Source of the DNA: Heterodontus francisci
Taxonomy: Eukaryota
Direction of reading: 5' to 3'
Assembly (NCBI RefSeq): GCF_036365525.1
Contig: NC_090399.1
Coordinates: 15,189,558 to 15,253,557, forward strand
DNA: 64,000 nucleotides
Shown one piece after another: positions 8,999 through 61,698 of this stretch. The number at the start of each line of letters is the position of its first letter. The first letter of the stretch is position 1. The notes under the pieces are model-generated. The model did not search any database. It was not told the origin of the DNA and saw nothing but the letters and a program-made list of their open reading frames with translations. The translations under genes and the position numbers were made by a program.

Positions 8999-9004
8999 TT
9001 TATT
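8999..9004 (-). terminator. Candidate polyadenylation signal AATAAA of gene A
   Basis: About 190 nt after the stop; conserved at 50705-50710. Confidence 0.55.
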
Positions 9005-9191: not shown

Positions 9192-9308
9192 TCAATCGAT
9201 AGTTGTGTACTCGACATCATGTTCCTCACTGTTCAATGTCCTCGTATTCCCCTCTTGTTTTGTGTTCACTTTGAATATTTCCTCATCACTTCCGCGATTG
9301 GAACATAC
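9192..9308 (-). CDS. Gene A terminal coding exon VCSNRGSDEEIFKVNTKQEGNTRTLNSEEHDVEYTTID*
   Basis: Acceptor aattgctag; open frame and TGA position conserved with 50883-51011 apart from an in-frame 12-nt indel; terminal VEYTTI motif. Confidence 0.75.
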   Translation of the reverse strand, partial: VCSNRGSDEEIFKVNTKQEGNTRTLNSEEHDVEYTTID

Positions 9309-12300: not shown

Positions 12301-15300
12301 TATTTTGCATTCATGTTTGTCCTTCCAAAATGGACGACCTCACACTTTTCAGGGTTAAACTCCATCTGCCACTTTTCAGCCCAGCACTGCAACCTATCCA
12401 AGTCCCTTTGCAGACGACAATAGCCCTCCTCGGTATCCACAACTCCACCAACCTTTGTATCATCTGCAAATTTACTGACCCACCCTTCGACTTCCTCATC
12501 CAAGTCGTTAATAAAAATCACAAACAGGAGAGGACCCAGAACTGATCCCTGCGGCACGCCACTGGTAACTGGGCTCCAGGCTGAGTATTTACCATCTAAG
12601 ACCACTCTCTGCCTTCTATCAGTTAGCCAATTCTTAATCCAACTGGCCACATTCCCCACTATCCCATGCCTCCTGACTTTCTCCATAAGTCTACCATGGG
12701 GGACCTTATCAAATGCCTTACTAAAATCCATGTACACCACATCCACTGGTTTACCCTCATCCACTTGCTTGGTCACCTGCTCAAAGAATTCAATCAGGCT
12801 TGTGAGGCAAGACCTACCCCTCACAAAACCGTGCTGACTGTCCCGAATCAAGCAGTGTCTTTCCAGATGCTCAGAAATCCTATCCCTCAGCACCTTTTCC
12901 ATCAACTTGCCTACCACCGAAGTAAGACTAACTGGCCTGTAATTCCCAGGGTTGTTCCTATTCCCTTTCTTGAACAGGGGCACAACATTTGCCACCCTCC
13001 AATCACCTGGTACCACCCCCGTCAGCAGAGAAGATGAAAAGATCATTGCCAGCGGCTCTGCAATTTCATCCCTTGCTTCCCATAACATCCTTGGATATAC
13101 CCCGTCAGGCCCGGGAGACTTGTCTATCTTCAAGTTATTCAAAAACCCCAACACATCTTCCCTCCTAACGAGCACTTCCTCGAGCTTACCAGTCTGCTTC
13201 CCACCGTCCTCTTCAGTAATACACCCCTTCTCATTCGTAAATACCGAAGAGAAGTACTCATTCAAAACCTCACTTATCTCTTCCGGCTCAACACACAGTC
13301 TCCCGCTATTGTCCTTGACCGGACCTACGGTCCCCCTAGTCATCCTCATATTTCTGACATACGCGTAAAAGGCCTTGGGGTTTTCTTTTATCCTACCCGC
13401 CAAGCATTTTTCATGCCCTCTCTTAGCTCTCCTAATCCCTTTCTTCAGATCCTTCCTGGCCATCTTGTATCCCTCCAGAGCTATGCCTGTGCCCTTTTTC
13501 CTCAACTTTATATACGCATCCTTCTTCTTCCTAACAAGACTCTCAACCTCTCTTGTCAACCACGGTTCCCTCACATGACCATCCCTTCCCTGTCTGACAG
13601 GGACATGCTTATCAATGGCCCCTACTATCTGCTCCTTGAAAAAGTTCCACATTTCGACCGTGCCCTTCCCTGCCAGCATATGCTCCCAACTTATGCTCCT
13701 CAGTTCCTGCCTGACAGCATCATATCTACCCTTCCCCCAATTGTAAACCTTGCCCTGTTGCACATACCTATCCCTCTCCATTACCACAGTGAATGCTACA
13801 GAATTGTGATCACTATCTCCAAAGTGCTCGCCCACCAACAGCTCTATCACTTGCCCTGGTTCATTACCTAGTACCAAATCCAATATTGCCTCCCCTCTGG
13901 TCGGGCAGTCTACATACTGAGTCAGAAAAGCTTCCTGGACATACTGCACAAACACTACCCCATCCAAACTATTCGATCTAAAGAGTTGCCAATCAATATT
14001 TGGGAAGTTGAAATCCCCCATAATTACTACCCTGTGACTTCTGCTCCTTTCCAAAATCTGTTTCCCAATCTGTTCTTCCACCTCCCTGCTGCTATTGGGG
14101 GGCCTATAGAAAACTCCCATCAAGGTGACTGCTCCTTTCCTGTTCCTGACCTCAACCCACAGTGCCTCAGTCGGCAGATCCTCCTCGAAAATTCTTTCAG
14201 CAGTTGTCATTACGTCTGGTTTCATTTTACTGCAAATAATAAGAACTTCTCTTATTTTGCAAGAAAACATAAGGAACAGAGGGAAAACTTCACAAGAATA
14301 TTTAGGATATTGAAAATACGTAGAGAAAAGAGAAATGCCAAAGTTGGAGATAATGGTTGGCGAAACAAAGATCTGTATCTCTGCGAAACACGCTGGTCGC
14401 TGTTTAACTATTACGATTTCGCTATAATGTGGGATAATTGCTCTGGCCGCAATGAGGAGCCTTAATGTTCACCGGAACCATCTAACATTGCACATACCGA
14501 ACATCTCATCATCCAATAACTCTTACTTGTGTCGTTGGCTGTATATTAGCTGCTGCTGTGAAAATGAAAGGAGAGAGAATGTGGGAGAATTACACAATGC
14601 AACACATAATAGCGCGCGCATACATATTGTAGATTCTTTCATATCAAATGAATTTGAATAAAATAATTTGCCATCGTATTTTTTAGATTTAGTTTGTTTT
14701 CATTAACCAGCAATAATAATCAACGTAGAATACATCATGGGAAGGCAATTACAACTCACGTACCACATATTATACTGGTTCCACGCTGATTCCTGTAATA
14801 ACAGAGATGATATTTGAATTTAAAATTTATGCACATTATGTTCTGAATAATCATTAATTAGATAAGATTTGCCATTTCCTGTACCTTTTCAGCCTCACGA
14901 TAACTGAAAGAAAAATAAGGTAGGCGTTAATACAACTGTTTTAAGATAATGACTTCGTGATGCTGTTCCATATTAAAATATCGTAAAATTGACTTTTCGC
15001 ACACCGACACATGAATAGATAGACCGTGCAGTGATTCTGATCACTATGTGTGCCGGCATTATAATGAATAGATGGACATTTCCTCCGATCATTATTTCTA
15101 ATGAGGTCCTAAGTGTGTTCTAAAATAATTGTTCATTCTAAACGCGTTTCCGATTACACTAGAAATGCTGACTGGCTCAAGAAAAGAATTAACTATATTG
15201 CTCATCGTAGCGGCCAGAGCAATTTTCTCGCTTTATAGCGAAAGCGTAATAGTTAAACAGGGGCCAGCGTGTTTCACGGAGATACAGACCTTTGTTTTGC

Positions 15301-18300
15301 CAAATCAGTCGAAATGCAAGAATTGTTGTGGTTATACACAGCAGCATCAACGCACGTTCCAGTAGGAGTATCAAGTTAATATTCTTGCTTTTTCCTCCCT
15401 GCATTCTTCCTGAAATAAGGAGTTGAAGTCAGTATTTTAAAATCTTACTTATTTATTGATACAGCACTGAAACAGTCCCTTCGGCCCTCCGAGTCTGTGC
15501 TGACCAACAACCACCCATTTATACTAATCCTACATTAACCCCACATTCTCTACCATTCTCCGACCACCTCTTGGGGCAATTTACAAAGGCCAATTTACCT
15601 ATCAACCTGCAAGTCTTTAGCTGTCGGCGGAAACCGGAGCACACGGTGGAAACCCATGCGGTCAAAGGGAGAGCTTGCAAACTCCACACAGGCAGTACCC
15701 ATAACCGAACCCGGGTCGCTGGAGCTATGAGGCTGCGGTGCTAATCACTGCGCCGCCCCATTTTGAGGATCCGCCGCTACTTTAGTGTAGGAAACGCGGC
15801 AGCCAAGTTGTGTACAGCAAGATTCCTCAAACAGCGATGTGAAGTGACAAGATCTTCTTTTTCGTGATGTTGATTGAGTGATAAATATTGGCCAGGACAC
15901 CGAGGATACCTTTCCTGCATTTCGTCGAGATAGCGTCATGGGATATTTTACATCCAGTTGAGTCTGCAAACGGTGTCTTGGTTTAAGGCTTCATCCAAAA
16001 CCTCCGGTACTGCAGCACTCCCTGCATACTGCACTGGGGACCACTTTGGGCTCCAGACTCTGGGGTGGGACCGTTATAACCAAAATATTAAAATGGAAAG
16101 AGGATAATTCCTACTCTACCGCGCTAGTATTAGCGCTTCAGCGATAATATAAGCAATATGGAGAACCACCCCCTACACCCCCACCACCCCCCCCCCCCCC
16201 CACCCCCAGCTCTATTACATTTCTGCATGTTCTGCTTAAAAGATTGACTCTTCATGAATTCTGGCGTCACTGGTAGCTCCCAAATGACAATTGTTTAACA
16301 TTGAGCCCAGTGGGTAAGAGTGGGCACTTGACGCAGCATCACAACCCAGCCCAGCCTGGTGGAAATGGACATTGGCCGGGACGCGGCACAAGAGTCATTG
16401 CATCCGTAGCCTGTTGTACACATGCGGTTTTCGGTTCCATTGACTTCAATGGGACTTCAATTATATTGACTTCAATAAAACAGAAAATGCGACGTGTTGT
16501 ATAACGAGCTGCATATGGGATTCACTGTGATTACTCTTGGATGCCACTTACGCCTCACTTCCAGTTTGGTGCCATTTCCATCTCTCACACCGGTTTCCGT
16601 TAAGCTTACACGACAGTAATAGGTGTCTGCGTCTTTCTCAGTCAAGTCGGAGATATTGATGAATATTCTGTTGTTGGTAAATGAATCACTGCCCGATTTT
16701 TCCAGCCGACCTTCATAAAATGGACTCTTGTCCAGTTTGTACCCATCCGGTTTACCCCGTGTCCAGTGAGCTGTGCCGATCAGGGTTACGTTTCCTTCAA
16801 AGTCCAGAGCACAGTTTAGTGTCACCGACTCCCCCTCAGCTGAAGTTAGAAAGGGAGGGAACTGGAAAACGGTGACATTCATCTTCCCACATGCTGAATG
16901 GAAACACTTTAACTTTAAAGGTGATAAGTAGTAAACGTCATTCCTCTTTAACAATTTTCGTTGGTGAAATTAATTGTCGTTTTACATTATATAGATACAG
17001 AGATCAAAAGCAAATAGCGGACATTTAAAAAGTCACACACAGAAAGTGCTGCAAATATCTATCAAATCAATCAGACTCTGAAAAAGGACAGGTTAACGTT
17101 TGGTTGTGTTGCTCCGCCCAATTGCCTTCTCTGCTGAAAAAAGAGCAAACTAATAAAATTCAATTGTAAGTCAATTACATGTGATATTGAATTCTATCAA
17201 ATTCATATTTCCGTTATCCTCGTTCATTCATTTTCTAATTCCATTTATTTTATACCAATGTGGGACAATATAGAACTTGTTTGACATTTCACCTTAGGCT
17301 TTCCTCATTTTACAAGGTACTACAGCAACATTTGTAAAATGGTGCAAATTTGAAAGAAGATCTGAACACATAGGCAGCCACTTATTTGGTTCTGCCCATA
17401 GTAGCATGTACATCTCGTGAAATCAGACGAGTAAAAAGGTCGTAAATGTTGCTTCCATGTATTGGCGGAAGGAAGTTGTTACGCTGACCCTCTGTCCTTT
17501 ATATCAATTAAGGTGATAACCCATTTATGTCGAACATGTGAATGTTTTCCCTGAAATTGAAGACAGATGCGAACACCATGTGAGCATGTGATCCCTCTCC
17601 TTACATTGTACTTATTGATGCAGCCACGTCTCACTCCACATGCGCGGATCACTGAAAGCTGGTGGACAGGGACACGCGGTAATGAAAGAGGTTAATGGAA
17701 TATTAGCCTTTATCTCAAGGAGACTGAGATAGAAAGGGAAGGATGTTATGATTCAGTTGTACAGAATCTTGCTCAGTCCTCATCTGGAGTAATTCTGGCT
17801 ATCAGGCATCAGGAAGGATGTGTTGGCCTTGAAGGTTGTGCAGCACAGATTCACTAAAATGATACTTGGGCTGTGAGGATTAAATTATATGGGGAGATTG
17901 TTTAAACGTGTCTTCCATTCCATTGACTTTAGATTATTGAGGATAGAGATGACGGAGCAGTTTAAAACGTTAAAAAGAACACAAGGGGGCAGATGCAGAG
18001 AAACTATTTCCTCTGGTGGGAGAATCTAGAACAAGGGGTATGATATTAAAATTAGAGCTAAGCCATTAAGGAGGTAAATCGGGAAGCTCTTTTTTACAGG
18101 TCATCTTTTAATTGCCGGTGGGATGATTTCCTCCGCTTTCTAAAATTTGAGAAAAAAAATGCAGCATGTGTTGCAAAGCTTAATGCTTCTGACAGAAAGG
18201 TCTATGTCAATAACTATGTTTCATCAGAAATTCCAATGCGGGAAAAATCGCACTATATTTGCGAAATCGGTACCCAGTTGGAGAGCGGAAATAATCCCCA

Positions 18301-19856
18301 GTGGACCCAAACAATGTATGAGGAAAATCTCAGAACACTAGGGGCGTAATTTTAGCTTCTGGCTATAATGGGACACAAGGGATGTTAAATTAGCTGCCCA
18401 TTATACACCTCACATATGTACACAAAATTAAAATAATAATAATGGTGTATTATTTCTTGTAGCTCATATTCCGACTCCGACTGGGTGCATGAAAGCGGAA
18501 ATTTCCCTGCACGCCCGCGCCTTCCAGTAAGTCAAAGTCAATAAACCAAATGCATGAGATGCAGCGAATGGGCGAGTTGGACATGGGGACACAGAAAGAA
18601 TGTGGACACTCCTTGCGAGTCCAATAGGGAGCGGGAAAGACAAATGTAGAAATGAACAGTGAGATACTGTAAGGAATCGAAGGATATACTGAGAAGTCAA
18701 TGAGAGAATGTGGTTGAATATCAGAGAGTGGCATTGAAAATGGGACAACAGAAGAGAAACAAAAAGGCAAGAAGGACAGGGCCAGAAAAACATAGGGTGA
18801 AAAGAAGGGGACAAGCAGTGGGACAGCTATAGGATTTAATACTGCTATATTGCTTTAATTTTGGGTATGAACAACGCGTAAGAAGAACTGCTTGTTCTGA
18901 CACTGGGAAGAGACCATTACTTACATGCAGTACAACTGGATTGGTAGAAAGATCCTACCTTCGTCAGAACATGTTGTGGAACACTTAAAGGAAAAGGCTC
19001 ACAAGGGGATGTTCACTGATGATTGCACAGTGTTGAATTCCATTGGAAATTCCTCAGATAATGAAGCAATCCGTGCGCGCGTGCAGCAAGACCTGGACAA
19101 CATCCAGGTTTGGACCAACAATTGCAAATAGCACAATTGCCAGCGAAGCTCACATACCGTGACTGAATTAAAACAAACGATTATGCGTTTATAAATAAAA
19201 AAAAACAATGAATTTGTATAGCGCCCCCATCACACCGTCGAATTATATAGAAGTATTTCATAATTACTTTTTGGAGTACAGCCGCTGCTGCTATGAAATC
19301 AAATGCAACAATCAATTTCTGTCAGTAACATCCCACAATTGGCTGGAATCGAACGAAGAGTTTCTCCTGGAATTTCTGCGGCTGGCTCGCTTCATCACCA
19401 GCCGTAACTTCGGCGGAAGATCGGTTAAAGGAAACAACAGCCGATCCTCCACCACGTTACACGCGAGTTCGAGAGAATCTCGTGGAAATTCTACATTTGT
19501 GTTCAAGTCTCGAACACACTATAATCCTGTTTAGAGGAACCTGGTCTAATTGCTCAGCACAGTGACATCACTATTTCGTAGTTAATGCGCCAACTTTCTG
19601 GAAGCTGCAGAAAAGATTGTTAACAGTTGGTACCCGTTTGCGTTTTTATGACTATTTCAAACAGCAAAGTTATCAATTAGAAGCTGGAAGTGTTTTCTTA
19701 AAAGCAAGTCTAGTTTCTGCGAAGGTTACAATTTAAATTCGACACTGTTCTCTACGCTATCGAAATTCTCCATAAGCGGCAAAAATCAATTAACTCACCC
19801 GTGCATATTGCAAAGAAACTCAACAGCATTAAAGTGAGCTGTTGACTTAATAGCAT
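9192..19856 (-). CDS. NCR3: Gene A: NKp30/NCR3-like single VJ-IgSF type I membrane receptor, about 237 aa; predicted join 19799-19856,16552-16893,15290-15409,14885-14903,14764-14792,14527-14555,9192-9308. Family-level call, not proven ortholog
   Basis: All exons bounded by AG/GT; phases chain 1,1,1,2,1,0 to a stop (714 nt). The V domain aligns by eye to human NKp30 (IGxxxWxR, GRL, DxxxYxCRV, GNGTxLxV). Exons 1-5 and 7 have paralogous counterparts in gene B. Confidence 0.75.
9540..10900. mobile_element. Decayed L2-like fragment with nested family-B 3' end (about 9985-10330)
   Basis: Purine-rich L2-like sequence; same nesting at 54170-55560. Confidence 0.55.
11547..14203 (-). mobile_element. 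Young 5'-truncated CR1 (HER1-like) LINE with uninterrupted ORF2 (APE C-terminal part plus RT) and (TATGTTC)6 tail
   Basis: ORF 11667..14270 with GDFNFP, SDHN, PQGSVLGP and FADD; empty site in paralog at about 56165. Confidence 0.97.
14361..14460 (+). repeat. Inverted copy of 15200-15299 (end of TM exon, donor and intron)
   Basis: About 86/100 identity to the reverse complement; absent at the paralogous site near 56335. Confidence 0.9.
14527..14555 (-). CDS. Gene A cytoplasmic micro-exon 6 (29 nt, AAANIQPTTQ) with tandem CAG acceptors
   Basis: Long pyrimidine tract plus cagcagcag, donor CAA|gtaaga; ends in phase 0, matching the terminal exon. Confidence 0.55.
14764..14792 (-). CDS. Gene A cytoplasmic micro-exon 5 (29 nt, NQRGTSIIC)
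   Basis: ttattacag acceptor; TG|gtac donor conserved in paralog 56844-56872. Confidence 0.55.
14885..14903 (-). CDS. Gene A cytoplasmic micro-exon 4 (19 nt, VIVRLKR)
   Basis: tttttctttcag acceptor, AAG|gtacag donor; needed for the frame chain. Confidence 0.6.
15290..15409 (-). CDS. Gene A exon 3, stalk plus TM with charged residues (LILLLERALMLLCITTTILAF)
   Basis: Acceptor ttatttcag, donor AAG|gtctgt, 120 nt, phase 1-1; paralog at 57361-57480. Confidence 0.85.
15455..15760 (-). mobile_element. tRNA-derived HE1-like (V-SINE) element
   Basis: A/B-box-like head gcagtgattagcac...gggttcg; V-domain-like core; CR1-type 3' tail; absent from paralog. Confidence 0.75.
15785..16080 (-). mobile_element. 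Deu-domain (SacSINE1-like) SINE; paralog at 57560-57960
   Basis: gcagccaa..cagcaag..cacaaacagc core, also at 20430-20760, 26700-27060 and 38290-38690. Confidence 0.65.
16552..16893 (-). CDS. Gene A exon 2, VJ-type Ig V-set domain (NKp30-like)
   Basis: Within ORF 16472..16954. B-strand Cys (VTLNC), C-strand Trp (AHWTR), DADTYYC and J-like GNGTKLEV in one 342-nt phase 1-1 exon; acceptor ttccattcag, donor C|gtaagt. Confidence 0.95.
17640..18100 (+). mobile_element. Decayed CR1 fragment shared with paralog at about 60040-60425
   Basis: Similar to CR1 3' coding region. Confidence 0.7.
19799..19856 (-). CDS. Gene A exon 1, signal peptide MLLSQQLTLMLLSFFAICT
   Basis: ATG at 19856, hydrophobic 19-mer, phase-1 donor G|gtgagt; conserved at 61641-61698. 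Confidence 0.85.
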
Positions 19857-29639: not shown

Positions 29640-31490
29640 GGTGGGAGAGAGAGAGCAAGCGAGCAAGCAGGCCGGAGATGGGGGGGGGGGTGGGGGCCGA
29701 AAATGGGGGGTGCTGGAAGCGGGCCAGAGATGGGGGGGGGGGAGCGGACCAGGGATGGGGGGGGCGCAGGCTGGGAACGGGCGGGGAGTGGGCTGGGGCC
29801 GTGGGGTGGGGAAGCGTGCCAGGGATGGGGGCGAGCGAGCGAGAGGGCTGGGGATGGGGGGGTGGTGGTGCAGAGTGGCTGGAGAGAGCAGGGAGGGGGG
29901 GAGCGGGGCGGCCAAGAGTGAGCAGCAAGGGAAGGTGTGGAGTGGCCAGAGAGCAGCGAGGGTGGAGCGGAGTAGTTGGAGAGAGCAGCGGGGGGGGGGG
30001 GGAGCGGCCTGAGAGAGCAGCGAGGTGAGCAGCAGAGCTGCCGGAGAGAACAGCGAAGGGGGGGGGGGGAGCCGCTAGAGAGAGCAGTGAGGGGGGGGGG
30101 GGGAGCAAAGCAGCCAGAAAGAGCGGAGCTGCCGGAGAGAACAGCAAGGGGGGGGGAGCGGAGAAGCCAGAAAGAGCGGAGCTGCCGGAGAGAACAGCAA
30201 GGGGGGGAGTGGAGCAGCAGGAGAGAGAAGCGAGAGGGGAGCGGAGCAGCCGGAGAGAGAAGCGAGGGGAGGGTGGAGCGATTGGAGCGAGCAGTGGGGG
30301 GGGGGGGGGGAAGCAGCCTGAGAGAGCAGCAAGGTGAGCAGCAGAGCGGCCAGAGAGAGCAGCGAAGGGGGGAGAGCCGCTAGAGAGAGCAGTGAGGGGG
30401 GGGAGCGAAGCAGCCAGAAAGAGCAGAGCTGCCGGAGAGAACAGCGAGGGTGGAACGGAGTGGTTGGAGAGAGCAGCGGGGGGGGGGGGGGGAGCGGCCT
30501 GAGAGAGCAGCGAGGTGAGCAGCAGAGCTGCCGGAGAGAACAGCGAAGGGCGGGGGGGGAGCCGCTAGAGAGAGCAGTGAGGGGAGGGGGGGGAGCAAAG
30601 CAGCCAGAAAGAGCGGAGCTGCCGGAGAGAACAGCAAGGGGGGGAGCGGAGAAGCCAGAAAGAGCAGAGCTGCCGGAGAGAACAGCAAGGGGGGGAGTGG
30701 AGCAGCAGGAGAGAGAAGCGAGAGGGGAGCGGAGCAGCCGGAGAGGGAAGCGAGGGGAGGGTGGAGCGATTGGAGCGAGCAGTGGGGGGGGGGGGGGGGA
30801 GCGGCCTGAGAGAGCAGCAAGGTGAGCAGCAGAGCGGCCGGAGAGAGCAGCGAAGGGGGGAGAGCCGCTAGAGAGAACAGCGAGGGGGGGAGCGGAGCAG
30901 CCGGAGAGAGAAGCGAGAGGGGAGGGGAGCAGCCGGAGAAAGAAGCGAGGGGGGACTGGAGCGGTTGGAGAGAGCAGCGGGGGGGGGGCGGGGTGAGCGG
31001 CCTGAGAGAGCAGCAAGGTGAGCAGCAGAGCGGCAGGAGAGAGAAGCGAGAGGGGAGCGGAGCAGCCGGAGAGAGAAGCGAGGGGGGACTGGAGCGGTTG
31101 GAGAGAGCAGCGGGGGGGCGGGGTGAGCGGCCTGAGAGAGCAGCAAGGTGAGCAGCAGAGCGGCCGGAGAGAGAAGCGAGAGGGGAGCGGAGCAGCCGGA
31201 GAGAGAAGAGAGGGGGGAGTGGAGAGGTTGGAGAGAGCAGCGGGGGGGGAGGGGGAGGGGGAACGGCCGGAGAGAACAGCGAGGGGGGGTTCGGAGCAGC
31301 CGGAGAGAGCACCGAGAGGGGGGAGCGGAGTGGCGGGAGACAGCAGCAAGGTGGGGGGAGCGGAGCGGCCGGAAAGAGCGGGGCAGTCGGAGACAGCAGC
31401 GAGGAGGGGGAGTGGAGCGGCCGGAGACAGCAGCGAGGGTTGGGGGTCGGGGGGTGGGGAGCGGAGCGGTAGGAGAGAGCAGGGAAGCTT
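29640..31490 (+). repeat. GC/purine-rich complex tandem array (about 30-bp ggagcggccggagagagcagcg(g)n units) with about 488-bp higher-order duplication
   Basis: Direct; e.g. 30203 and 30691 repeat. Confidence 0.95.
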
Positions 31491-32830: not shown

Positions 32831-33867
32831 CCTTTAAATGCAAAGGTGACTCCACCATGTAACAGCTCTAACTTCTGGCTGCAAGGTTTGTCTTGCACAT
32901 GTTTGAAAACCAATGCAGGACTGGTGGGGAAATCTGTGCTGTTGGTATGGTTTTTCAACTATTACACATCGACATACGTTTATGAACACTTTGCTTCTGC
33001 AGCAACTTATCATATTTCTTGGTGTAATATGTCTAGTTGGCAATGCAACTAGAACATGAACATATTTTCCTGTTTTTAACAAAGATCGTATAATTGCAGA
33101 GACATGTATTTTCACATAACAGCAGAGAAATGAATACAGATTCAACATGCATATTAGTCTGCAGCTTTTCACAGTCAGATGAGTAGACGCTCATAGTAAG
33201 TAATTATTCTTCAATTATTTTTCTGCTGTGTATTTTCTTTTATGGTATATTTAAGTCTCACGTCCTGGAATGTGCAAAATTAAGATTACTCACCCAGGTG
33301 CAGCACGCCTACAAGAAGGAATGTTACACTTGAGTGAGAGAAGAGGATCGCAACGTCACAGGAGACGCTGGGATACAGCAGGGTAAGTATGTGGCAGTAA
33401 GACAGAAAGTGCTAGGGTAATTCAGCAGGTCAGGCAGCATCTGTGGCGAGAGAAGCAGAGTTAACTTTCAGGTCTGTGAACTTGGTCACGTTGACTCTGC
33501 TTCTCTCTCCACAGATGCTGCCTCACTTGCTGAGTTTCTCCAGCACTTTCTCCTTTGCTGCCAGATTGACAGCAGTCCCACTCTTCAGCAATCAGGTAAG
33601 TATTTATTTGACAACTGTCAAGAAGCGGGTGATGGGGCGCTTAAAATAGGGCCCCGGCACCTGCTGCACAGTTGTCAAAATGTCTCTCACTGCGCGGAAT
33701 GTCCCGACTCTCACCACGTAATGAGGGGCTGGCGGCTGGGCGCAGTGATGCTGTTGAGCCCAGTGCGAAATATTGCAGGAGCTCTGTGGCGGCAGCTAAA
33801 TGCGGGCACCCCGCTGAGTTTAAAGGGCGCCGCCGCGCATAGCTGCGCCCAAATAAATTTCAGCCCA

Positions 33868-41509: not shown

Positions 41510-42585
41510 ATTACGACCGCAACATCTCAGCCAATGACCACAAGCTCACCACCTCCAGCATGATGCCACTACCAAACGCATCTTCCCCTCCATTCCCCTG
41601 ACAGCATTCCGAAGGGATCGTTCCCTCCACGACACCCTGGTCCACTCCTCCATTACCCCCACCACCTCGTCCCCACCCCATGGCACCTTCCACTGAAATC
41701 GCAGGAGGTGTTATACCTGCCCATTTACCTCCTCTCTCCTCACTATCCCAGGCCCCAAACACTCCTTTCAGGTGAAGCAGCGATTTACTTGTACTTCTTT
41801 CAATGTAGTATACTGTATTCGCTGCTCACAATGTGGTCTCCTCTACATTGGGGAGACCAAACGCAGACTGGGTGACCACTTTGCGGAACACCTCCGCTCA
41901 GTCCACAAGCATGACCTCGAGCTTCCGGTTGCTGGCCATTTCAACACTCCCCCCTGCTCTCATGCTCACACCTCTATCCTGGGATTGCTGCAGTGTTCCA
42001 GTGAACATCAACGCAAGCTCGAGGAACAGCATCTCATTTACTGATTAGACACACTACAGCCTGCCGGACTGAACATTGAGTTCAGTAATTTCAGAGCATG
42101 ATGGCCCCCACCCATTTTACTTATACTTTTCGTTATTTTTTCTTTTTCATATTTTTTATATTTTTTTGTATGTTTATTTTATTTCTTCTTAGTTTGTTCA
42201 GTTTGCTTACCCATTGTTTTTTTTTATGTTTGTACTTGCTGCTGTTCAATTATCAGTCCATTAACACCCTATCTGTACTAATGCTTTGTCTTTCAACACG
42301 CTGTTAACATAACGTTTGCCTTTGCTCCACGACCTTCTGGTCAGCTATACTGTGGCCTTGTCCTATCTACACATTCTCCTTTGTTATCTCCTGCCCCACC
42401 CCCACTTTACTTGCTTATAACCTTTGACATTTCTAATATTTGCCAGTTCCGAAGAAGGGACATTGTCCTGAAACATTAACTCTGCTTCTCTCTCCACAGA
42501 TGCTGCCAGACCTGTTGAGTATTTCCAGCATTTATTGTTTTTATTTCAGATTTCCAGCATCCGCAGTATTTTGCTTTTATTTTAG
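41510..42585 (+). mobile_element. Penelope-like element: GIY-YIG endonuclease region plus pLTR
   Basis: VVYCIRCSQCGLLYIGETKRRLGDHFAEH. Confidence 0.88.
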
Positions 42586-42934: not shown

Positions 42935-43105
42935 ATAAAAGCAAAATAGAGCAGATGCTGGAAATCTTAAATAAAAAGAAAAAGTGCTGGAAATACTCAG
43001 CAGGTTTGGCAGCATCTGTGGAGAGAGAAGCAGCATTAACGTTTCAGGTCAGTGACCTTTCATCGCCTGTCTAAGGAAAGTTCACTGACCTGAAACGTTA
43101 ACTCT
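42935..43105 (-). mobile_element. Penelope pLTR fragment with 25-bp inverted repeat
   Basis: ttaacgtttcaggtcagtgaccttt ... aaagttcactgacctgaaacgttaa. Confidence 0.7.
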
Positions 43106-50704: not shown

Positions 50705-50710
50705 TTTATT
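50705..50710 (-). terminator. Candidate polyadenylation signal AATAAA of gene B
   Basis: About 175 nt after the stop; conserved with gene A. Confidence 0.55.
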
Positions 50711-50882: not shown

Positions 50883-51011
50883 TCAGTTGATGCTGGTGTT
50901 CTCGACATGCTGTGCCTCATTGTTTACTGTCATTGTCTTCCCCTTTTGCTTTATGTTCAATTCGGCGTAATGCAGGGAAACTGCCTCATCACTGTCACGA
51001 TTGGAATATAC
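50883..51011 (-). CDS. Gene B terminal exon with ITIM: VYSNRDSDEAVSLHYAELNIKQKGKTMTVNNEAQHVENTSIN*
   Basis: Acceptor aattattag; LHYAEL fits the ITIM consensus [ILVS]xYxx[LV]. Confidence 0.8.
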   Translation of the reverse strand, partial: VYSNRDSDEAVSLHYAELNIKQKGKTMTVNNEAQHVENTSIN

Positions 51012-54000
51012 CTAATAATTATCAGAATCAGATTTAAAACAGATATAATTAACAATGCATGCAAATACATGTGCATGTTTGTAGCGTCCTTAAATTAGAA
51101 AAAAACAGTTCCATGGCATTTGAATGATGTGTAGTCAGATAATAAAACAACGCAAATGTTGGAGAATCAGTCTGGCAGCATAAGGAGCGGTGCTGATTAG
51201 TAGCGGTTCAGTAGAGCTCTCCGTTGCATACATAGTGATGTTATCGGCGAATCATAGACCAATAGAATTGTTACAGCACAGAAGGAGGTCATTGGGCCCA
51301 TCGTGTTCGTGTCGCCTCTCTGCAAGAGCAATTTACCTATTCCTAGTCTCACTATTTTCCCCGTATCACTTCATTTCTCCCCTTCAGATAATTATCCAAT
51401 TCCCTTTTGAAAGCCACGATTGAATCTGCCTTTACTACACTCTCAGGCGAATCCTAACCACTCGCTATGTAAAAAGTTTTTTTCCTCATGATATCTTTCG
51501 TACTTTTGCCATTCACCTTAAATCGGTGTCCTGTGGTTCTAGATCCTTCCTCTACTAGGAACAGTTTTTCCTGTCTAGTTTGTCCAGACCCCTCATGACT
51601 TTGAACACGTCTATCAAATCTAGGCTCAACCTTCTCTTCTATAAGGAGAATAGCCCCATGTTCTCCAATCTATCTTCGTACCTGAAGTCCCTCATGCCTG
51701 GAACCATTCCCATGAATCGTCACTGCACCCTCTTTCATGCCTTCACATCGTTCCGAAAGTGTGGCTTCCAGAATTGGACAATACTCCAGTTGAGGCTAGT
51801 AGGTGTCTTCTCAAGGTTCACCATAACCTCCTTGCTTATTTACTCTATGCATTTACTCTATGCAACTTCTTATAAAGCCCAGGATATCGTTTGCCTAATG
51901 AACCGCTTTCTCAACCTGCCCTGCCATCTTCAACGATTTGTGCAAATATCTTCTCAGGTCCATGTGTAGCTGCACCCACATTAGAATTGTACCCTTTATT
52001 GTATATTGCCTCTCCTCGTTCTTCCTCCCAAAATGAATCACTTTATATTTCTCCGCATTAAATTTCATCTTCCAGTTGTCTGCCCATTCTATCAGCCTCT
52101 CTGCGTCCTCCTGAAGACTATTTCTATGCTCCTTACATTTTACAATACTTCCACGTGTTGTTTCATATGCACATTTTGAAATTGTGCCTTGCAAACCCAA
52201 GTCCATCTCATTAATTTAGATGAAGAAAATCAGGGGTCCCAATACCAATCCTCGGGCAGCTCCACTATACACCTTGCTCCACTCTGAAAAGCAACCATTC
52301 ATCACTACTCTCTGTTTCCTGTCACTTAGCCAGCTCCATTTCCATGCTACCATTGTTCCTCTTATTTCATGGCCTTTAGCTTTGCTGACAAGCCTGTTAT
52401 GTGGTGCTTAATCAAATGCCTTTTGGAAGTCTATGTACACCACAACAACTGCATGACCTCCTTCAGCCCTCTCTGTTACCTCATCAAAAAACCCAATCAA
52501 GTTAGTTAAATGCGATTTGCCCTTAACAAATCCATGCTGAATTTCCTTAATTAACCTGCCTTTGCTGAAGTCCTATATCTCTCTTTTTATTAATCTTTAG
52601 CACATCCTGTGTCTCAACTACCTCCTATTTCACTATGACGTGGGCAGCATCAAAATAATACAATTACGAACGAGGCTGAGTATAGGATGTTCACAGTGCA
52701 TGTTAAAAAAGAAATGAGAAACAAAGAGGCAGTATGAGAAGAGACTGACAACGAACATAAAAGGGAATCCAAAAGCCTTCTATAGGCATATAAATAGTAA
52801 AAGAGTGGTAAAAGGAGGAGTGGGGCTGATTAGGCAACAAAACGGAGATTTGCACATGGAGGCAGATGCAACGTATTTATTTAGTACCTCAACCATGCCC
52901 TCTGCCTCCATGTGCAAATCTCCGTTTTGTTGCCTAATCAGCCCCACTCCTCCTTTTACCACTCTTTTACTATTTATATGCCTATAGAAGGCTTTTGGAT
53001 TCCCTTTTATGTTCGTTGTCAGTCTCTTCTCATACTGCCTCTTTGTTTCTCATTTCTTTTTTAACATGCACTGTGAACATCCTATACTCAGCCTCGTTCG
53101 TAATTGTATTATTTTACTCTCTATCACTTTTGTCATCCAGGTAGCTCTGGCGTTGTATTTTTTATCTTTCCAGAGAATGGGAATGTAGTTCGACTGTGCC
53201 GGAACAATCACCTCTTTAAAGGCAGCCCATTGTTCAGTTACAGTTTTGCCTACCAATCTTTGATTATAATTTACCTGGGCCAGGTCCATGCTCACCTATT
53301 GAAATTGGCCATCCTCCAATTAATTATTTTTACACTGGATTGCTCCTTGTTCTTTTCCATTGCTTACCAATACTTTATGGTACTATGATCACTGTTTACT
53401 AAATGTTCCTTAACTGACACTTGACCCCTCTTATTCCCTAGAACCAGATCCAAAAAATGCCTCATTCCTCATTGGACTTGAAACATATTGATCTGGAAAA
53501 CATTCCTGAACACATTTCAGAAAATTTTCTCTCTCACTGGCATTACACTATTACTATCGCAGTCTATATTCAGATAAAATCCCACATTGTAATTGCTCTG
53601 TAGTTTTTGTACCTCTCTGCAATTTATTTGCAAATCTGTTCCTCTATATCTTTCCCACTAGTTGGTGACCTGTAGAATACACCCACCTGTGTAATTGTAT
53701 CTTTATTGTTTCTTAGCTCTAACGAAATAGATTCTCTCCTTGATCTCTCCAGGACATTTCTCTCAATCAATAGTGCCAACCTTCCTCCTTTCTTTCCTTC
53801 CATATCTTTGCTGAACACTTTTTCCAGGAATATTTAGTACCTAATCATGCCTTTTTGTGAGCCAGATTTCTGTTAGCGCCACAAAATCATATTTCCACTG
53901 GACTATCTGCACCTGTAGCTCACCACCTTTATTTACCACACTCCATGTGTTCACATTCACGCACAGTAAAACTAATTTAGCCCTTAGTTAATTCACTGTT

Positions 54001-57000
54001 GCTCTGACATCACTGCCTTACTATTTTTACTCTAATACTGTCTGTGTCTCGCAATTCTTTGTGCACCTTAGTTTTCCCCTGTAATGTTATCTCCTGGTTG
54101 ACAGTCCCCTGCCAAGTTAGCTTAAAACCTCCCAAAAGCACTAGCAAACCGCCACGCAAGGACATTGGTTGAATGCATGGCTTCGATTATGCCAACAAGG
54201 AGAAGCATGTAGATGAGGGAGCAGGAGATGGATCCTTTACAGACTTCTGGGCTAACGGTTGTGGGTAGAAAGAGTCGCCATTGCTAGAGAGGTCCTGGTT
54301 AAAATTAGATGAGTATAATACAGCCAAGTAACAGCAGTCCGAGAGAGCTTAAGAACAGAGAAGAGATGTTGGAGAAAGGATCCTGTGATAGACGTGTCAA
54401 AGTTTACGGGGAGAAGAAATAACATATCATAGTCACAGGAGCAGAGAGTGCCACACGTGATGTTGATCAGGTTCGTTTTGTATTGTGGTAGAGGCAGAAA
54501 ACTGATTTGAGAGGAGATGGGTTCAGGTCTGGGAGGCGACAGCACGTTAAGGGCCTTGGTGAGGAAAGGATGGTTGAAGATAGGACATTAGCTCGAAAGT
54601 GAAGAAAGGTCAAAGATGCACTGCAGCAAATCGCTAAGGCTTCTTCCACAGCACCTCCTAAACTCGCTTCCTCTATCACCTAGAAGAACAAGGACAACAG
54701 GCGCAGGGAAACACCACCATCTTTAAAATCTGCTCCAAGCAACACATCATTCTGACTTAGAAATATATCGCTGTTCCTTCATCATTTCTGGTGCAAAAGG
54801 CAAGAACTCACTGCCCAACAGCACTGTAGATGCACGTGTACACGGACTGCAGCGGTTCATGGATGTCCCTCAGCACCACCTGCTCAAGGGCAACTCGGAG
54901 TGGGCAATAAATAGCGGCCTGGGAAGAGATGCCCATATCCTGTGAATGAATAAATAAAGTTACGAGATCTTGACAGAGGGATAATGGCAACAACTTTGAA
55001 AGGTAGGGAGACAATCCCTGCTTAAATTTAACTATTTAAAATATCGGCTAAAAATAGTGCCAGGAGGAGACGTTGGATGATCGGGAATTTAGTGGGAATT
55101 GAGGGTAGGAGATCAGGAAGTAAGTCTCATGGATTAAACTAATTTGGAAGGGGTGTGGGCAAAAGGGCAGATGCTAATGTAAGGCCAGGTGTCAGGGCAA
55201 TAATGAAGGCAGGACTGGGAAAGATATGGCTGAGTACATAAAGGGAAGATGGAGGCAGCGAAGTAGCTGAACAGATGGTCTCTACCTTCGGTAGAATGAA
55301 TTCCATGAGTTCCTCGCACTTGTTTTTAGAGATGAGAGCGGAAGTGGTGGGGTAAGCTATTTAAGGAGACCGCAATTATTGTTACCTTCCAGAATGATTC
55401 TAGAATAGTGGATTGTTTCTGCAGAAGTAAGTGGAGCCCGGAAGAGTTTAATGCGGCAAGCCACATCTAGGAGTAAATTGCTAATCTGGTTTCTGCCCAG
55501 TTCCATCATCTTTGTTCCCCCCTTAGATTTAAGGAAGCTTGGGGGTCATACCAGAGAGATCCACTGGAATAAGAAATTGAGAGGTTTGTATTGGGAAGAA
55601 GGGCACCAAATGCAAATCGCCTTTTTTTTCAGATTAGTGTTTCATGAAATTACCATATGGGCAACACGGCTAAACTATTAGTAGAGAAATTGTTTGTGAC
55701 AAAAAGAGAAAAGACACCACATTAATGTTACACCACCATTCTCCAATGATAAATGCAATGTTGAGTTCATTAGGATGACAGACATTAACGCTATCCAATC
55801 GAATATATTACCTCAATAACAATCCATTGCAGAATCCAATATTTCCGAGTCAGCTACATTATTACAGTCTGCAAGGTGAATTTTCCTCTACTCTGTATGA
55901 ACAACACCCTTACACAAAAAGCTCAGAAGCGGGATCCTACTGTCCAAGTCCATTTATTTATTCTGGTAGCTTATGACCTGTGCAATTGAGATTACCAATT
56001 CAATACAAATTGTACTTTTTGGGGTGGTTTCGAAATTGTGAGTCAACGTTTATTGGAAGGTTGTGAACCTAACAATCAACAGAGAGAGAGGAGTCTTTCA
56101 GCCTATCAGTCTGGGCAAAAGTTAATTTAGGCCATAACGTGGGCGCAGCATGTCTCTTGAAGAATTATTCTTGATTATCATTACGTTTTGTTTCATTTTC
56201 TGGCAATTATAAGCACTTCCCTTATTTTGCTAAAACATTCGTAACAGCGATAAAGCATCACAAGCAGATCGAGTATATTGAAAATACGTAGAAAACTGAA
56301 TAATTCCATCGTTGGAGATAATGGGTAGCGAATTACTGAAGCCTCATTGTTCACTGGAATTATCTATCATTGCACATACCAAACATCTGAATATTGAACA
56401 GCAGCAAGTGCAAACATGAACAGTCCGTTAACACCTTTTCTGTACTAATGCTTTGTCTTTCAACACACCATTAACATATTGTTTGCCTTTTCTCCATGAC
56501 CTTTTGGTCAGCTATGTGGCCTTGTCCAATCTGCACCTTCTCCTTTGTTATCTCTTGCCCCACCCCCGGCTCACTTACTTATAACCTGTGACATTTTTAA
56601 TATTTGTCAGTTTCGAAGAAGGGTCACTGACCCGAAATGTTAACTCTGCTTCTCTTTCTACAGATGCTGCCAGACCTGCTGAGTGGTTCCAGCATTTCTT
56701 GTTTTTATTTCAGATTTCCAGCATCCGCAGTATTTTGCTTTTAAAATAATGTGTAACTATTTTTATATGTAGTTTGTTTCCATTAACCAGCAATAATAAT
56801 CAATGTAGAATGCATCAATTGAAGGCAATTACATCTCGCGTACCATATATTGTACTGGTTCCACTGCGATTTCTGTAATGAGAGGTGATATTTGAAATTA
56901 AAAATGACGGACATTATGTTCTGAATAATTATTAATTCCGTAAGATTTGACATTTCCTGTAACTTTTCAGCCTCGGGATACCTGAAAGAAAAATAATACA

Positions 57001-60000
57001 GGTTTAATATTATTGTTTTAAGGTAATTACTTCCTGTTTGCTACCAAAAAAAAGTAAAATTGGCCTTTAGCACACCAACACATGAATCGATAGGCCGTGC
57101 AGTGATTCTGATCACTATATGTACCGGCATTATAATGAATAGATGGACATTTCCTCCGATTATTATTTCTAATGAGGTCCTAAGTATGTTCTAAAATAAT
57201 TGTTCATACTAAACGCGTTTCTGATTGCACTAAAAATGCTGACTAGCTCCAGAAAAGCATTAACTATACTGCTCCTCACCGTGGCCAGAGAAATTGTCCC
57301 ACATTATAACGAAAGCGCAATAGTTAAACAGGAATCAACCTGTTTCATAGAGATACAGACCTTTGTTTTGCCTGATCAGTCGACATCTAAGAATCGTTGT
57401 GTTTATACCCAGCAACATGAACGCACCTCCCAGTGCAAGTATCAGGTTCATATTGGCGTTCTTTCCTTGCTGCATTCTTCCTGAAATAATGAGTTGAAGA
57501 CAATAGTTGTATGTTTTAATATGATTTTGCTCGCATTAAAACAAAGAGCACGGTTGTAAAAAAAAGTCTTGCATTTCTATAGCGCCTTTTACGGCCTAAG
57601 GAAGTCCCAAAGCGCTTCACAGCCGATGAAGTTCTCGTGAACTGTATGCACTGTTGTAGGAAACGCAGCAGCCAATATGCGAACAGCAAGGTCCCACAAA
57701 CAGCAATGTGACAATGACCAGATCTTTTTATTTTAATGATGCTGATTGAGAGATAAATATTGACCAGGACTCGGAGAATACCTTCGCTGCACTTCACCGA
57801 AATAGGGTCATGGGATCATTTACTTGAGTGTCGAGAAGGGGACTTGGATTCAGGTTTCATCCAAAAGACGGCACCTCCGACAGTGCAGCACTTCCTCACA
57901 CTGCACGGGAAAGTCAGCATGGATTTTTGGGCTCCAGTCACTGGAATGGCACCATACTGAACAAAATAGCAAAGCGGAAACGGAATGTTCCTACTCTCAT
58001 GCGATGCTATTAGCACTTCAGTGACAATACAAGCAAAATCTAGAAAGCCTCCCCCTACTTCTATCAAATGTCGCTGTGCTCTCCCTAAGGTATTGCCTCT
58101 CCATGGTCTTTGGCGCCACCATGAGCTTGCAGATGGTGATTTTTTAACATTGAGCCCAGCGGATCTGCTTGTCGACTTGACTCTAAGCAGCATCACAACC
58201 TAACCCAGCCTGGTCAACATTGAACGTGGGCGAGGACGCCACGCGACACGGGCGGTATTGCATCGTACCTGTTATACACCGCGGTTTCGCTTCCTTTGAC
58301 TTCAATGGGACGTGAATTAAATTCACATCAATAAAACGGAATATCCGGCGTGTTGTATGACGGGCTGCAGGTGCGATTTAGTATGTTTTGCGCCTGCAGC
58401 TGTGTCCAATTTCAACCCCGCACCCTGCTACCCCCCCCCCCACCCCCACCCCCAGCCCCAGCCCCAGCCCCACCCCTAGATGTACACATAAATATAAATA
58501 TATTCCATTGCACAACATGCAAGATTTGAGAATGTCTGAAGGTGCTTCTCTGAACGATTTCCCTGTCCCTGGTGTCCAGTGAGCTGTGTCGATCGGGGGT
58601 AGATTTCTTTTTAAAGACCACAGCACAGTTCAGTGTCACCGGCTCCCCCTCAGCTGCAGTTAGAAAGGGAGGGAACTGGAAAACGGTGACATTCATCTTC
58701 TCACCTGCTGAATGGAAACACTGTAACTTTAAAGGTGATTTCCCCGCCCCTGGTGCCCAGATTCCTGCGGCCAATTGTCCTCTGGTCAGTTAATATATCG
58801 CAGTTTCCAAATTGACACAAGGACCTTTCTGGCCTGTGACAATCGAGTACGGCTATAAAATTAGAACACCTGCTTAATAAATGATTATTCTAAGTTTCAA
58901 CTTACGCCTCACTTCTAGTTGGGTGCCATTTCCATCTCTCACTCCTACTTTAAACAGGCGGACCCGACAGTAATAGGTGTCTGCGTCTTTTTCAGTCAAG
59001 TCGGAGATTTTGATGAATATTCTGTTGTTGGTAAATGAATCACTGTCTGATTCCTCCAGCCGACCTTCATAAAATGGATTCTTGTCCAGTTTGTACCCAT
59101 CCGGTTTACCCCGTGTCCAGTGAGCTGTGCCGATCAGGGATAGGTTTCCTCCAAAGTCCACAGCACAGTTCAGTGTCACCGACTCCCCCTCAGCTGCAGT
59201 TCGAAAGGGAGGGAACGGGAAAACGGTGACATTTATCTTCCCACCTGCTGAATGGAAACACTGCAACTTTAAATGTGATAAGTAGAAAACGTCATGCCTC
59301 TCTAACGCTGCCCGACAATTTTCGTTGGAAAAGGTAATTATCATTTTACATTAGATAGATACAGAGATCAAAAGTACAACAGCGGTCACTGAAAACGTGA
59401 AGCACATTATACATACACAGGAAGTGCTAAAATATCTAGCAAATCAGTCAGGCTCTGAAAGGGAAGGACAGGTTAGCGTTTGGTTGAGTTGCTCCGCCTT
59501 CTCGTCTGAACCAAGAGCTAAACTAATAAAATTCAAGTGTAGATCAATTACCTGTGATATTGAATTCTATGAAATTGATATTTTCATTATCCTCGTTCAT
59601 TCAACCACTGTTTTCTAATTCCAGTTGTTTTCTACCAATGTGGGACAATATAGAACTTGTTTTACATTTCGCCTTAGGCGTTCCTCACTTTACAAGGAAC
59701 TACAGCAACATTTGTAAAATGGTGCGAATTTGAAAGAAGTTCTGTGATGATATGCCGATATGTAAACACATAGTCAGCCACTTATTTGGTTCTGGCCATG
59801 GTTTCATTTACATCGCGTGAAATCTGACACGTAAAAAGAAGTTTAAAGTCGTACATGTTCCTTCTATATATTGGCGAAAGGAAGTGTAGATGTCCTTTAT
59901 TTCAATTAAGGTGTTCACTCATTTATACCGGACATGTGACTGCGTTCAGTAAAATTGAAGACAGATGTTAATACCATATCAGCAATCGCACCCTCTCCTT

Positions 60001-61698
60001 ACATTGCGCTTATTGCTACGGCCACGTCTCACTCCACATGCGTAGCTCACTGAAAGCTAATGGATGGGGACACAAGATAATGAAAGAGACTAATGGAATG
60101 TTAGTCTCAAGGGTATCAGTCCTCATCTGGAGTAATACTGGCTATCAGGTATCAGGAAGGATCTGTTGGCCTTGAAGGTTGTGTAGTACAGATTCACATA
60201 AAATGATACCTGGGCTGTGAGGATTAAATTATGATGAGTGATTGTTTCAACGTGTCTGCTATTCCCTTGAGTTTAAATGATGGAGCGGTTTAAAATGTTA
60301 AAAAGGGCACGATGGGGTAGATCCAGTGAAACTACTTCCTCTGATGGAGAATCCAGAACAAGGGGGCACGATGTTAAAATTAAAGCGAGGCCATTAAGGA
60401 CATAAATCAGGAAGCAGTTTTTTCACTGGTCATCTTTTAATTGCTAGTGGGATGATTTTCTCCGCTTTATCTCTGGTCACATTGTAATACAAATGCGTCA
60501 TGTGTTCCAATGTTTCTGGCAAAAAGTCTATCTCAGCAGATCTATAGTTTCATCAGAAGTTCTAATGAAAAAAGTCACTATGTGTGAGAAAGACAGATGC
60601 ACAGATAAACAGTGAGGTACTGAGAAATGGAATTGGAGAAGATACTAAGAAGTCGACGAGAGAATGAGGTTGAGTATCAGAGCGTGGCGTTGCGAAAGCG
60701 ACAGCAGAAGAGCAACAAAAAGACAGCGGGATGTAAAGGGTTAGGAAAAGAAAGGGGGAGAAGAAGGCGACAAGCAGCGGAACAACTCCAGGATTTACTA
60801 CTGCTATATCGGTTTAATTTTTGGGTAGGAACAACACGTAAGAAGAACTGTTTGTTCTGATAGTGGGAAGAGACCATTATTTGCATGCAGTACAATCGGA
60901 TTGGTAGAAAGATCCTGGTTTCGCCAGAACATTGTGTGCAAAATATAAAGGAAAAGAATGTTCAGTGATGATTGTACAGTGTTCAGTTCCAGGCTTGAGC
61001 TGATAATTGCAAATAACACAAGTGCCAGCAACACTCACATCCTGTGAATGGATTAAAAACAAACAATTATGCGTTTATAACTCGAATAAATGGTGAGTTC
61101 CTAAAGCGCCCCATCTCATCGTCGACTTAAACAAACTTGCTTCATAATTTTTTGGGAGTACAGCCACTACTGTTATAAAATCAAGCGCAGCAGTCAAATT
61201 TCTGTCAGGAACATCCCACAATCGTCTGAAACCTAACAAAGAGTTCCGCCTGGAATTTCTGCTCATTCCATCGACCGGCCGTAACTTCGGAGGAAGATCG
61301 GTAAAAGAAACAGCAGCCACTCTTCCACCCAAGTTACACGGGTGATCGGGAGAATCTCGCGGAAATGTTGTGTTCAAGTCTCTAACACATTGTAGTCCTG
61401 TTTCGACGAGCCTGGTCAATTGCTCAGCACAGTGACATCACTATTTCATAGTTAATGCACCAACTTTCTGTAAGCCGCAGTAAAAAAATGTTAACAGTTG
61501 GTACCCGTGAGCGTTTTTATGACTATTTCAAATAGTAAAATTACCGCTTAGAAATCAGAAATGTTTTCTTAAAAGCAAGTCTAGTTTCTGTGAAGGTTAC
61601 AATTTAAATTAATGCTGCTCGCTACCCTATCATAACTCACCCGTGTGTATTGCACAGAAAATCAATAACATTAAAGTGAGCTGTTGACTTATTAGCAT
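50883..61698 (-). CDS. NCR3: Gene B: ITIM-bearing NKp30/NCR3-like VJ-IgSF receptor, about 225 aa; predicted join 61641-61698,58906-59247,57361-57480,56844-56872,50883-51011
   Basis: Paralog of gene A; V domain differs at 18 of 114 aa (hand count); the chain is in frame (678 nt) if micro-exon 4 is skipped; ITIM LHYAEL. Confidence 0.7.
51260..54165 (-). mobile_element. Long decayed CR1 present only in copy 2 (last intron of gene B)
   Basis: GVFYRSP, EVLNKY and KFNAEKYKVIHFG remnants; paralog contiguous near 9500-9540. Confidence 0.85.
52652..53115. repeat. Perfect 215-bp inverted repeat with 34-bp spacer
   Basis: Arms 52652-52866 and 52901-53115; no mismatch seen. Confidence 0.95.
56390..56745 (+). 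mobile_element. Penelope pLTR insertion replacing the region of micro-exon 6
   Basis: Matches 42240-42585; flanks align to about 14507 and 14660 of copy 1. Confidence 0.85.
56844..56872 (-). CDS. Gene B micro-exon 5 (EIAVEPVQYM if exon 4 is skipped)
   Basis: AG/GT conserved with gene A exon 5. Confidence 0.5.
56963..56981 (-). pseudogene. Gene B micro-exon 4 with donor changed from GT to TT
   Basis: Paralog of 14885-14903; AAAAG|ttacag here versus AAAAG|gtacag in A. Confidence 0.55.
57361..57480 (-). CDS. Gene B exon 3, stalk plus uncharged TM (LILALGGAFMLLGINTTIL)
   Basis: Same splice sites and length as 15290-15409. Confidence 0.8.
58572..58739 (-). pseudogene. Truncated, frameshifted 5' half of a third V exon inside gene B intron 2
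   Basis: Encodes AGEKMNVTVFQFPPFLTAAEGEPVTLNCAVV then shifts frame; DNA homology ends near the Trp codon; acceptor retained. Confidence 0.9.
58906..59247 (-). CDS. Gene B exon 2, VJ-type Ig V-set domain
   Basis: Within ORF 58874..59344; canonical C, W, YYC and GNGTQLEV; 342 nt, phase 1-1. Confidence 0.95.
61641..61698 (-). CDS. Gene B exon 1, signal peptide MLISQQLTLMLLIFCAIHT
   Basis: End of ORF 61630..61839; donor G|gtgagt. Confidence 0.85.

Follow-up and report, generated by a model that had tools for sequence, protein, structure and literature searches.

Two NCR3/NKp30-like paralogs in tandem

The window, a stretch of 64,000 nucleotides, carries two NCR3/NKp30-like paralogs on its minus strand, here called genes A and B. 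Each has a leader, one V exon, a transmembrane (TM) exon, micro-exons and a terminal exon. Self-comparison of the window showed a tandem duplication, with ∼6.4-20.7 kb matching 46-62.6 kb at 70-84% identity. A G+A-rich tandem repeat of ∼1.6 kb (29850-31490) lies between the genes. The exons of gene A are as follows.

19799..19856, minus strand: exon 1, leader
16552..16893, minus strand: V exon, 92% identity to Heterodontus
15290..15409, minus strand: TM exon; E and R at the position of the GG shared by B and all homologs
14885..14903, minus strand: micro-exon 4, 19 nt, GT donor intact but weak
14764..14792, minus strand: micro-exon 5, 29 nt, with a derived TAA in the shifted frame
14527..14555, minus strand: micro-exon 6, 29 nt, absent from B
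9192..9308, minus strand: coding part of the terminal exon; a 12-nt in-frame deletion took the proximal tyrosine motif, the distal VEYTTI is kept, and AATAAA lies at 9004

The predicted A product has 237 aa and follows the 7+9+10 layout of the shark homologs. Downstream of exon 6, only A has a ∼104-bp inverted copy of intron 3 (15200-15303), at 14357-14460, which could pair across exons 4-6. The last intron of A also holds a ∼2.6-kb retroelement insertion (11570-14200), presumably CR1-like by its appearance, which B does not have. The exons of gene B are as follows.

61641..61698, minus strand: exon 1, leader, 58 nt, phase 1, with ATG and GT donor; 76% identity to the Heterodontus leader over 17 aa
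58906..59247, minus strand: exon 2, VJ-type V domain, 342 nt; PF07686, NCR3/NKp30 in PDB, 84% identity to Heterodontus NCR3-like
57361..57480, minus strand: exon 3, stalk and TM, 120 nt, ending in phase 1; no charge at the GG position
56963..56981, minus strand: micro-exon 4, 19 nt; intact acceptor and dead donor, L>P, and T>G at the first base, creating AG|GT
56844..56872, minus strand: micro-exon 5, 29 nt; acceptor and donor intact, reading EIAVEPVQYM in the shifted frame that skipping of exon 4 would impose
50883..51011, minus strand: coding part of the terminal exon (exon 7), phase 0; ITIM-like LHYAEL kept, distal tyrosine gone (VENTSI), AATAAA at 50710

The leader, V, TM, fifth and seventh exons of gene B contain no stop, frameshift or further splice-site loss. 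Its terminal (ITIM) exon lies outside the interval treated in the preliminary description of this DNA. Another placement of the terminal exon, at 11240 in A and 55870 in B, was dropped, an indel there making the two frames differ.

The introns of B hold several other features. A partial copy of the start of the V exon lies in intron 2 (58572-58739, minus strand), with ∼90% identity to both genes and an intact acceptor. The last intron contains a perfect 215-nt inverted repeat with a 34-nt spacer (52652-53115), either a recent fold-back or an assembly artefact. Upstream of exon 4, a B-specific pyrimidine-rich acceptor and a weak donor delimit a possible 10-nt cryptic exon, out of frame (57040-57031, minus strand). 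An intron-1 segment on the minus strand (59600-59553 in B, 17227-17180 in A) translates like the alternative first exon of Heterodontus isoform X2. It is identical at 16/16 aa in B, with the CAG|GT donor kept, and at 13/16 aa in A, with CAT|GT; a leaderless isoform is possible.

The V domains of both genes match the PF07686 profile (E=4.5e-10 for the V exon of B). The J-like G strand is coded in the V exon itself, with a GNGT motif inside the 342-nt exon, indicative of a single V-set domain of VJ type. In a structure search, the best 4 of 143 PDB matches were NCR3 (human NCR3/NKp30), and both homologs returned by a sequence search were shark NCR3 (Heterodontus and nurse shark). In a tree of 10 proteins, built after the micro-exon residues were taken out, A, B and the Heterodontus gene formed one clade (support 96/94), within which the branching is not settled; the window is accordingly from a shark. 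In mammalian NKp30, a charged transmembrane residue serves adaptor pairing. No such residue was found in B, which has GGA, as do six shark homologs; E and R occur only in A. The charged residue is no feature of this shark subtype.

Exon 6 and the exon-4 donor in gene B

Two lesions distinguish the tail region of B from that of A. They are listed here with the features needed to read them.

56389..56743, plus strand: lesion 1, a 355-bp Penelope-like 3'-end fragment (56421-56743 direct, 56393-56420 inverted), replacing 154 bp including exon 6
41697..42579, plus strand: longer retroelement copy, a GIY-YIG-like ORF remnant followed by a 3' segment matching the B insert
56961..56962, minus strand: lesion 2, exon-4 donor dinucleotide GT>TT; a shifted GT begins one base earlier, at 56963
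56873..56962, minus strand: intron 4, 90 nt

The A segment that holds exon 6 (14660-14507, 154 bp) corresponds in B to 355 bp (56743-56389), and no match to A exon 6 was found in B or elsewhere in the window. The preliminary description, by which a retroelement had replaced the segment of this 29-nt exon in B, is borne out. The insert is 88% identical over 326 bp to the copy at 42254-42579, and its 28-bp end (56393-56420) matches the adjoining element sequence, 42223-42250, in reverse. About 200 bp upstream of the matching copy lies the GIY-YIG-like ORF remnant (41697-42041), whose match to PF01541 (E=0.002, 18.8 bits) is under the Pfam cut-off of 22.6. The insert had been called a Penelope pLTR. 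Partial repeats of the terminal segment are indeed present, inverted over 28 bp at the end of the B insert and as inverted copies at 42936-43065 and 33422-33551. The Penelope label itself is likely but not proven, given the GIY-YIG match below the cut-off. A hammerhead ribozyme motif is found in many Penelope-like clades, though not all; Rfam gave 0 matches at E≤1 in 56300-56850, and hammerhead variants may lie beyond its models.

From what is generally known of target-primed insertion, the inverted end and the lost target DNA fit one single retro-insertion. A term search of PMC11167929 found no passage on deletions. The insert carries 6 private differences from the other copies in 123 columns, or 4.9% (CI 1.8-10.3%), counted where at least two copies agree and with copies from this window only. 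Introns of A and B diverge by 17.6%, and the figure for the insert is about half of the part of this that falls to B.

Lesion 2 is a donor change. After exon 4, B reads 'ttacag' where A reads 'gtacag', in agreement with the GT>TT change reported at the outset. The TM exon ends in phase 1 and exon 7 begins in phase 0. Joining B exons 3, 5 and 7 gives an open product of 225 aa in the ITIM frame, so the earlier claim that losing exons 4 and 6 together restores this frame also holds. Exons 3, 4, 5 and 7 give 194 aa, out of frame, with a stop in the last exon. Thus either lesion alone shifts the frame, and both together remove 48 nt and restore it, as expected of a compensatory pair. Both changes are derived on the B branch, A and six species retaining exons 4 and 6.

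Donors were scored by exact matches to the U1-pairing consensus, a crude measure. The 10 intact donors score 5-8, the lowest (5) being the A exon-4 and B exon-5 donors; the former has the fewest matches among A's 6 donors. The B TT site and the shifted site score 4 each. This shifted donor, which retains 18 nt of exon 4, had also been proposed to work. It does so by frame, since exons 3, 18 nt, 5 and 7 give 231 aa in the ITIM frame, but its U1 match is no better than that of the dead TT. The 18-nt route is unlikely because the site scores below all intact donors.

Ancestral layout, tail motifs and constraint

Proteins of six species (Heterodontus, Ginglymostoma, Chiloscyllium, Mustelus, Heptranchias and Scyliorhinus) have blocks of 7+9+10 residues between the TM and terminal exons, matching micro-exons of 19, 29 and 29 nt. 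Because these species' proteins carry matching blocks, the micro-exons are not chance, and the gene model first proposed (leader, V, TM, 19, 29, 29, terminal exon) is confirmed. The Heterodontus isoform X4 (XP_067865600.1), a predicted RefSeq model, joins the TM exon to exon 5 as EITVGPTQCM and continues into exons 6-7 out of frame. RefSeq predicted isoforms usually rest on RNA-seq. Since this isoform already skips exon 4, the skipping route is likely older than the lesions, and a gene with every exon intact apparently uses the junction required by B, in a minor form lacking the ITIM.

Other annotated isoforms vary the same region. Those of Scyliorhinus that skip the TM exon begin at exon 4, and in one of Heptranchias the exon-6 donor is read through. 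Splicing of this gene's tail region is loose in other sharks (annotated isoforms P0010, P0162 and P0163). In another shark subtype (Heptranchias P0170, Pristiophorus P0013), the terminal exon is the same but is preceded by residues for a single micro-exon; natural tails shorter by 16 residues therefore exist. Skipping of exon 4 in A had been suggested to give a short-tailed isoform. This is plausible: the predicted product has 180 aa, and it is predicted to escape nonsense-mediated decay (NMD) because its stop lies 35 nt before the last junction.

The two frames of Heterodontus exon 5 allowed its nucleotide sequence to be solved, with one solution. Compared with it over 29 positions, B differs at 6 and A at 10, 5 of these being common to both. 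Specific changes number 1 in B and 5 in A, the latter including the T of A's TAA. In the shifted frame, a stop is impossible in 3/7 homolog proteins, while 4/7 leave it undetermined; nine random codons lack a stop 65% of the time. That exon 5 is open in B and interrupted by TAA in A, as the preliminary description had it, stands as a fact of sequence. As a sign of compensation it does not, because the outgroup frame is open and A's TAA is derived. B's open exon-5 frame is evidently inherited, not a compensating change.

Exon 4 of B presents a different picture. Its first base is changed T>G (V>G) and a second change gives L>P, in a peptide that is near-invariant elsewhere. Together with the donor change, these two radical derived changes fall within 21 nt, versus 1 B-specific change in the 29 nt of exon 5. 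Exon 4 of B looks freed from coding.

The ancestral terminal exon had two tyrosines, each present in 6/7 homolog proteins. The ITIM consensus is (I/L/V/S)xYxx(L/V/I). Predicted motifs that match it are LHYAEL in the in-frame exon 7 of B and VEYTTI in A. B kept the proximal motif, with YAKV changed to YAEL, and lost the distal tyrosine; A is the reverse, with the proximal motif deleted and VEYTTI kept. Treating 'the ITIM' as one motif shared by the genes, as was done at first, was mistaken: the motif kept is not the same in A and B, and the tyrosine missing from B is the more conserved of the two. Any rescue of the ITIM in B would be partial at best. Two close paralogs with opposite motif losses were found in none of the other species covered by our homolog searches. 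The E and R in the TM exon of A and the loss of opposite tail tyrosines raise the possibility of paired-receptor divergence.

To what extent is gene B constrained? In exon 7, 28/114 aligned bases differ between A and B, which is not below the introns (13-21%), and derived residues over 38 columns number 8 in B and 10 in A. A dN/dS of 0.46 for this exon was rejected as a measure of constraint: pS comes from 22 sites, and pN (0.21) is the same as the divergence of introns. The V exons differ at 32/342 bases, versus 13-21% in introns, with a pooled dN/dS of 0.6. We also estimated neutral survival, taking the indel rate from 3707 aligned intron bases and the age of the insert as the time. The probability that B's whole frame, ATG and remaining splice sites would survive neutrally is 0.005 (0.16 at the lower dating bound). 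For leader, V and TM alone it is 0.02 (0.25 at the lower bound), and for the tail alone 0.29 (0.07-0.63). These data suggest that B is probably functional and no pseudogene. Its tail is without clear purifying constraint, and the survival figure does not show the tail in use.

A search for sequencing runs gave 5, with shares of 0.04-0.06 and no RNA run among them, and no transcript of B was found. Contigs of 4 of these runs, compared with 56760-59300, gave mostly SINE matches and did not cover exons 4-5. One 763-nt contig spans the V exon with 33 differences, and 23 of the 29 differences shown equal gene A. This contig is from an A-like gene of another organism and says nothing about the splicing of B.

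Splicing of gene B and its relation to known systems

We consider it fairly probable that gene B uses a pre-existing exon-4-skipping route, turned in frame by the loss of exon 6. B would likely splice the TM exon to exon 5 and exon 5 to exon 7, giving a predicted 225-residue receptor with one predicted ITIM. A single insertion with deletion, roughly midway along the branch of B, would have removed exon 6. Its loss would have flipped the isoforms: the former major form, with exon 4, would become short and ITIM-less, and the former minor form, without it, would come into frame. Decay of exon 4 (T>G at its first base, L>P, and GT>TT in the donor) could have followed, the skip being fixed by selection or drift. 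From the AG|GT at exon 4, a second splice to exon 5 might yield an identical end product, though the regenerated donor is predicted to be weak (5 matches).

Either single-lesion intermediate has its stop in the last exon and is predicted to escape NMD and to give a membrane-anchored receptor, with paralog A as a buffer. No deep fitness valley or strong selection is needed, because these states would escape NMD and stay membrane-anchored. For the same reason, either order of the lesions is compatible with the sequence. With two micro-exons left, a random second lesion restores the frame about half the time: loss of exon 4 does so, and loss of exon 5 does not. Selection as the cause of the second lesion and inhibition by the tail are hypotheses. 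A bolder scenario holds that the retroelement inverted a CEACAM1-like long/short splice switch, leaving an out-of-frame minor isoform that already existed as the sole functional one; that selection then abolished the exon-4 donor and created a zero-length AG|GT site; and that the duplicates divided the ancestral signals, A acquiring charged TM residues and retaining the distal motif, B retaining the proximal ITIM, as a nascent activating/inhibitory NKp30 pair. We regard this as speculative and rather doubtful.

A real rival, which the preliminary description left out, is that intron 4 is retained. Loss of a donor in a short intron often gives retention, and this intron is just 90 nt, flanked by an intact exon-4 acceptor and an intact exon-5 donor. 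The resulting 138-nt exon would add 16 residues up to a stop, which lies 88 nt ahead of the last junction. Transcripts would then be predicted NMD targets, mostly degraded or encoding a short tail, and B would, if working, be an ITIM-less receptor or decoy. The tail's lack of clear constraint and its missing distal tyrosine are in keeping with this. Yet the exon-5 acceptor, the exon-7 frame, the stop position and the ITIM-like motif have all been kept, and Heterodontus has an annotated exon-4 skip. Survival of the ectodomain (P=0.02 at the point estimate) also speaks against heavy NMD. We judge retention to be unlikely.

Alternatively, B could be a decaying or silent duplicate whose lesions cancel by coincidence. 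The prior for such cancellation is near one half, and neutral survival reaches P=0.16 at the lower dating bound. B also has more derived residues than A (V 11 versus 6, TM 8 versus 3), and its introns hold the partial V-exon copy and the 215-nt inverted repeat. What argues against decay is the state of the gene: coding exons free of stops and frameshifts, no other splice-site loss, AATAAA kept, and V divergence of 32/342 against 13-21% in introns, at the pooled dN/dS of 0.6. Coincidental cancellation in a dying gene is, in our view, quite improbable.

There is only a slim chance that B still includes exon 4 by way of a non-canonical donor, either the TT itself (19 nt, out of frame, 194 aa) or the shifted GT (18 nt, in frame, 231 aa). 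Both products are open and the exon-4 acceptor is intact, but each site has 4 U1-consensus matches, under all 10 intact donors (5-8), and V>G and L>P have altered an otherwise near-invariant exon-4 peptide. Finally, it is very unlikely that the TT, one base in one assembly, is an error or a single allele, or that a cryptic exon is used, so that the pairing is not fixed: a crude screen of the interval from exon 5 to exon 7 did give 3 candidate cryptic exons (one of 33 nt, open), yet none lies inside the insert, and two more derived changes in exon 4 point to real decay.

If B is spliced through exons 3, 5 and 7 as predicted, it would be a clean, datable case of an out-of-frame minor form pre-adapting a gene to an exon deletion. 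It would also illustrate how the tails of NK-receptor duplicates are rewired in the most ancient lineage that possesses adaptive immunity. Neither the gene family nor splicing in general is seen differently as a result. The main paper on NCR3 genes of sharks is Kinlein 2021 (cited in PMC12272517), in which tail variants may be described. We found no description of this locus in the openly accessible literature covered.

Among known receptors, the nearest are shark NCR3/NKp30 proteins (nurse shark QTT61901.1; Heterodontus XP_067865596-600), which, like A and B, have one VJ-type V exon, a TM exon, a micro-exon tail and tyrosine motifs. Homologs of this subtype, where full-length, all use exons 4-5-6-7; for B, use of 5-7 is predicted, exon 5 being read in a different frame. 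No protein with the B architecture was found among the homolog matches (2, 6 and 15) or among 5 new ones from 150 of 242 profile matches, searches of limited reach.

Several systems outside sharks share parts of this logic. Recursive splice sites (AG|GT; PMC8605326, PMC8184009), like exon 4 of B, place a GT right after the acceptor; unlike them, B has short introns and a weak regenerated donor (5 matches). In CEACAM1-L/-S, one cytoplasmic exon, in or out, shifts the frame and toggles the ITIM tail (PMC2490704). Exon 4 of A and of Heterodontus resembles this toggle; B would have it the other way round, the long tail resulting from skipping. Biba et al. describe compensatory frameshift pairs made of 1-2 nt coding indels (PMC8935012). 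As in B, two frame breaks on one branch cancel and the middle is re-read in a new frame. In B, however, the units are whole micro-exons, one lost in DNA and one at the splice level. In KIR2DL4 9A alleles, an alternative splice brings back the frame and the cytoplasmic tail of a frameshifted NK-receptor gene (PMC6288254), as is predicted for B. That case involves a 1-nt allele and optional inclusion of an intron, whereas B would combine a whole-exon deletion with hard-wired donor loss. Frame rescue by splicing is already known; gene B would add to it a case with whole micro-exons as the compensating units.
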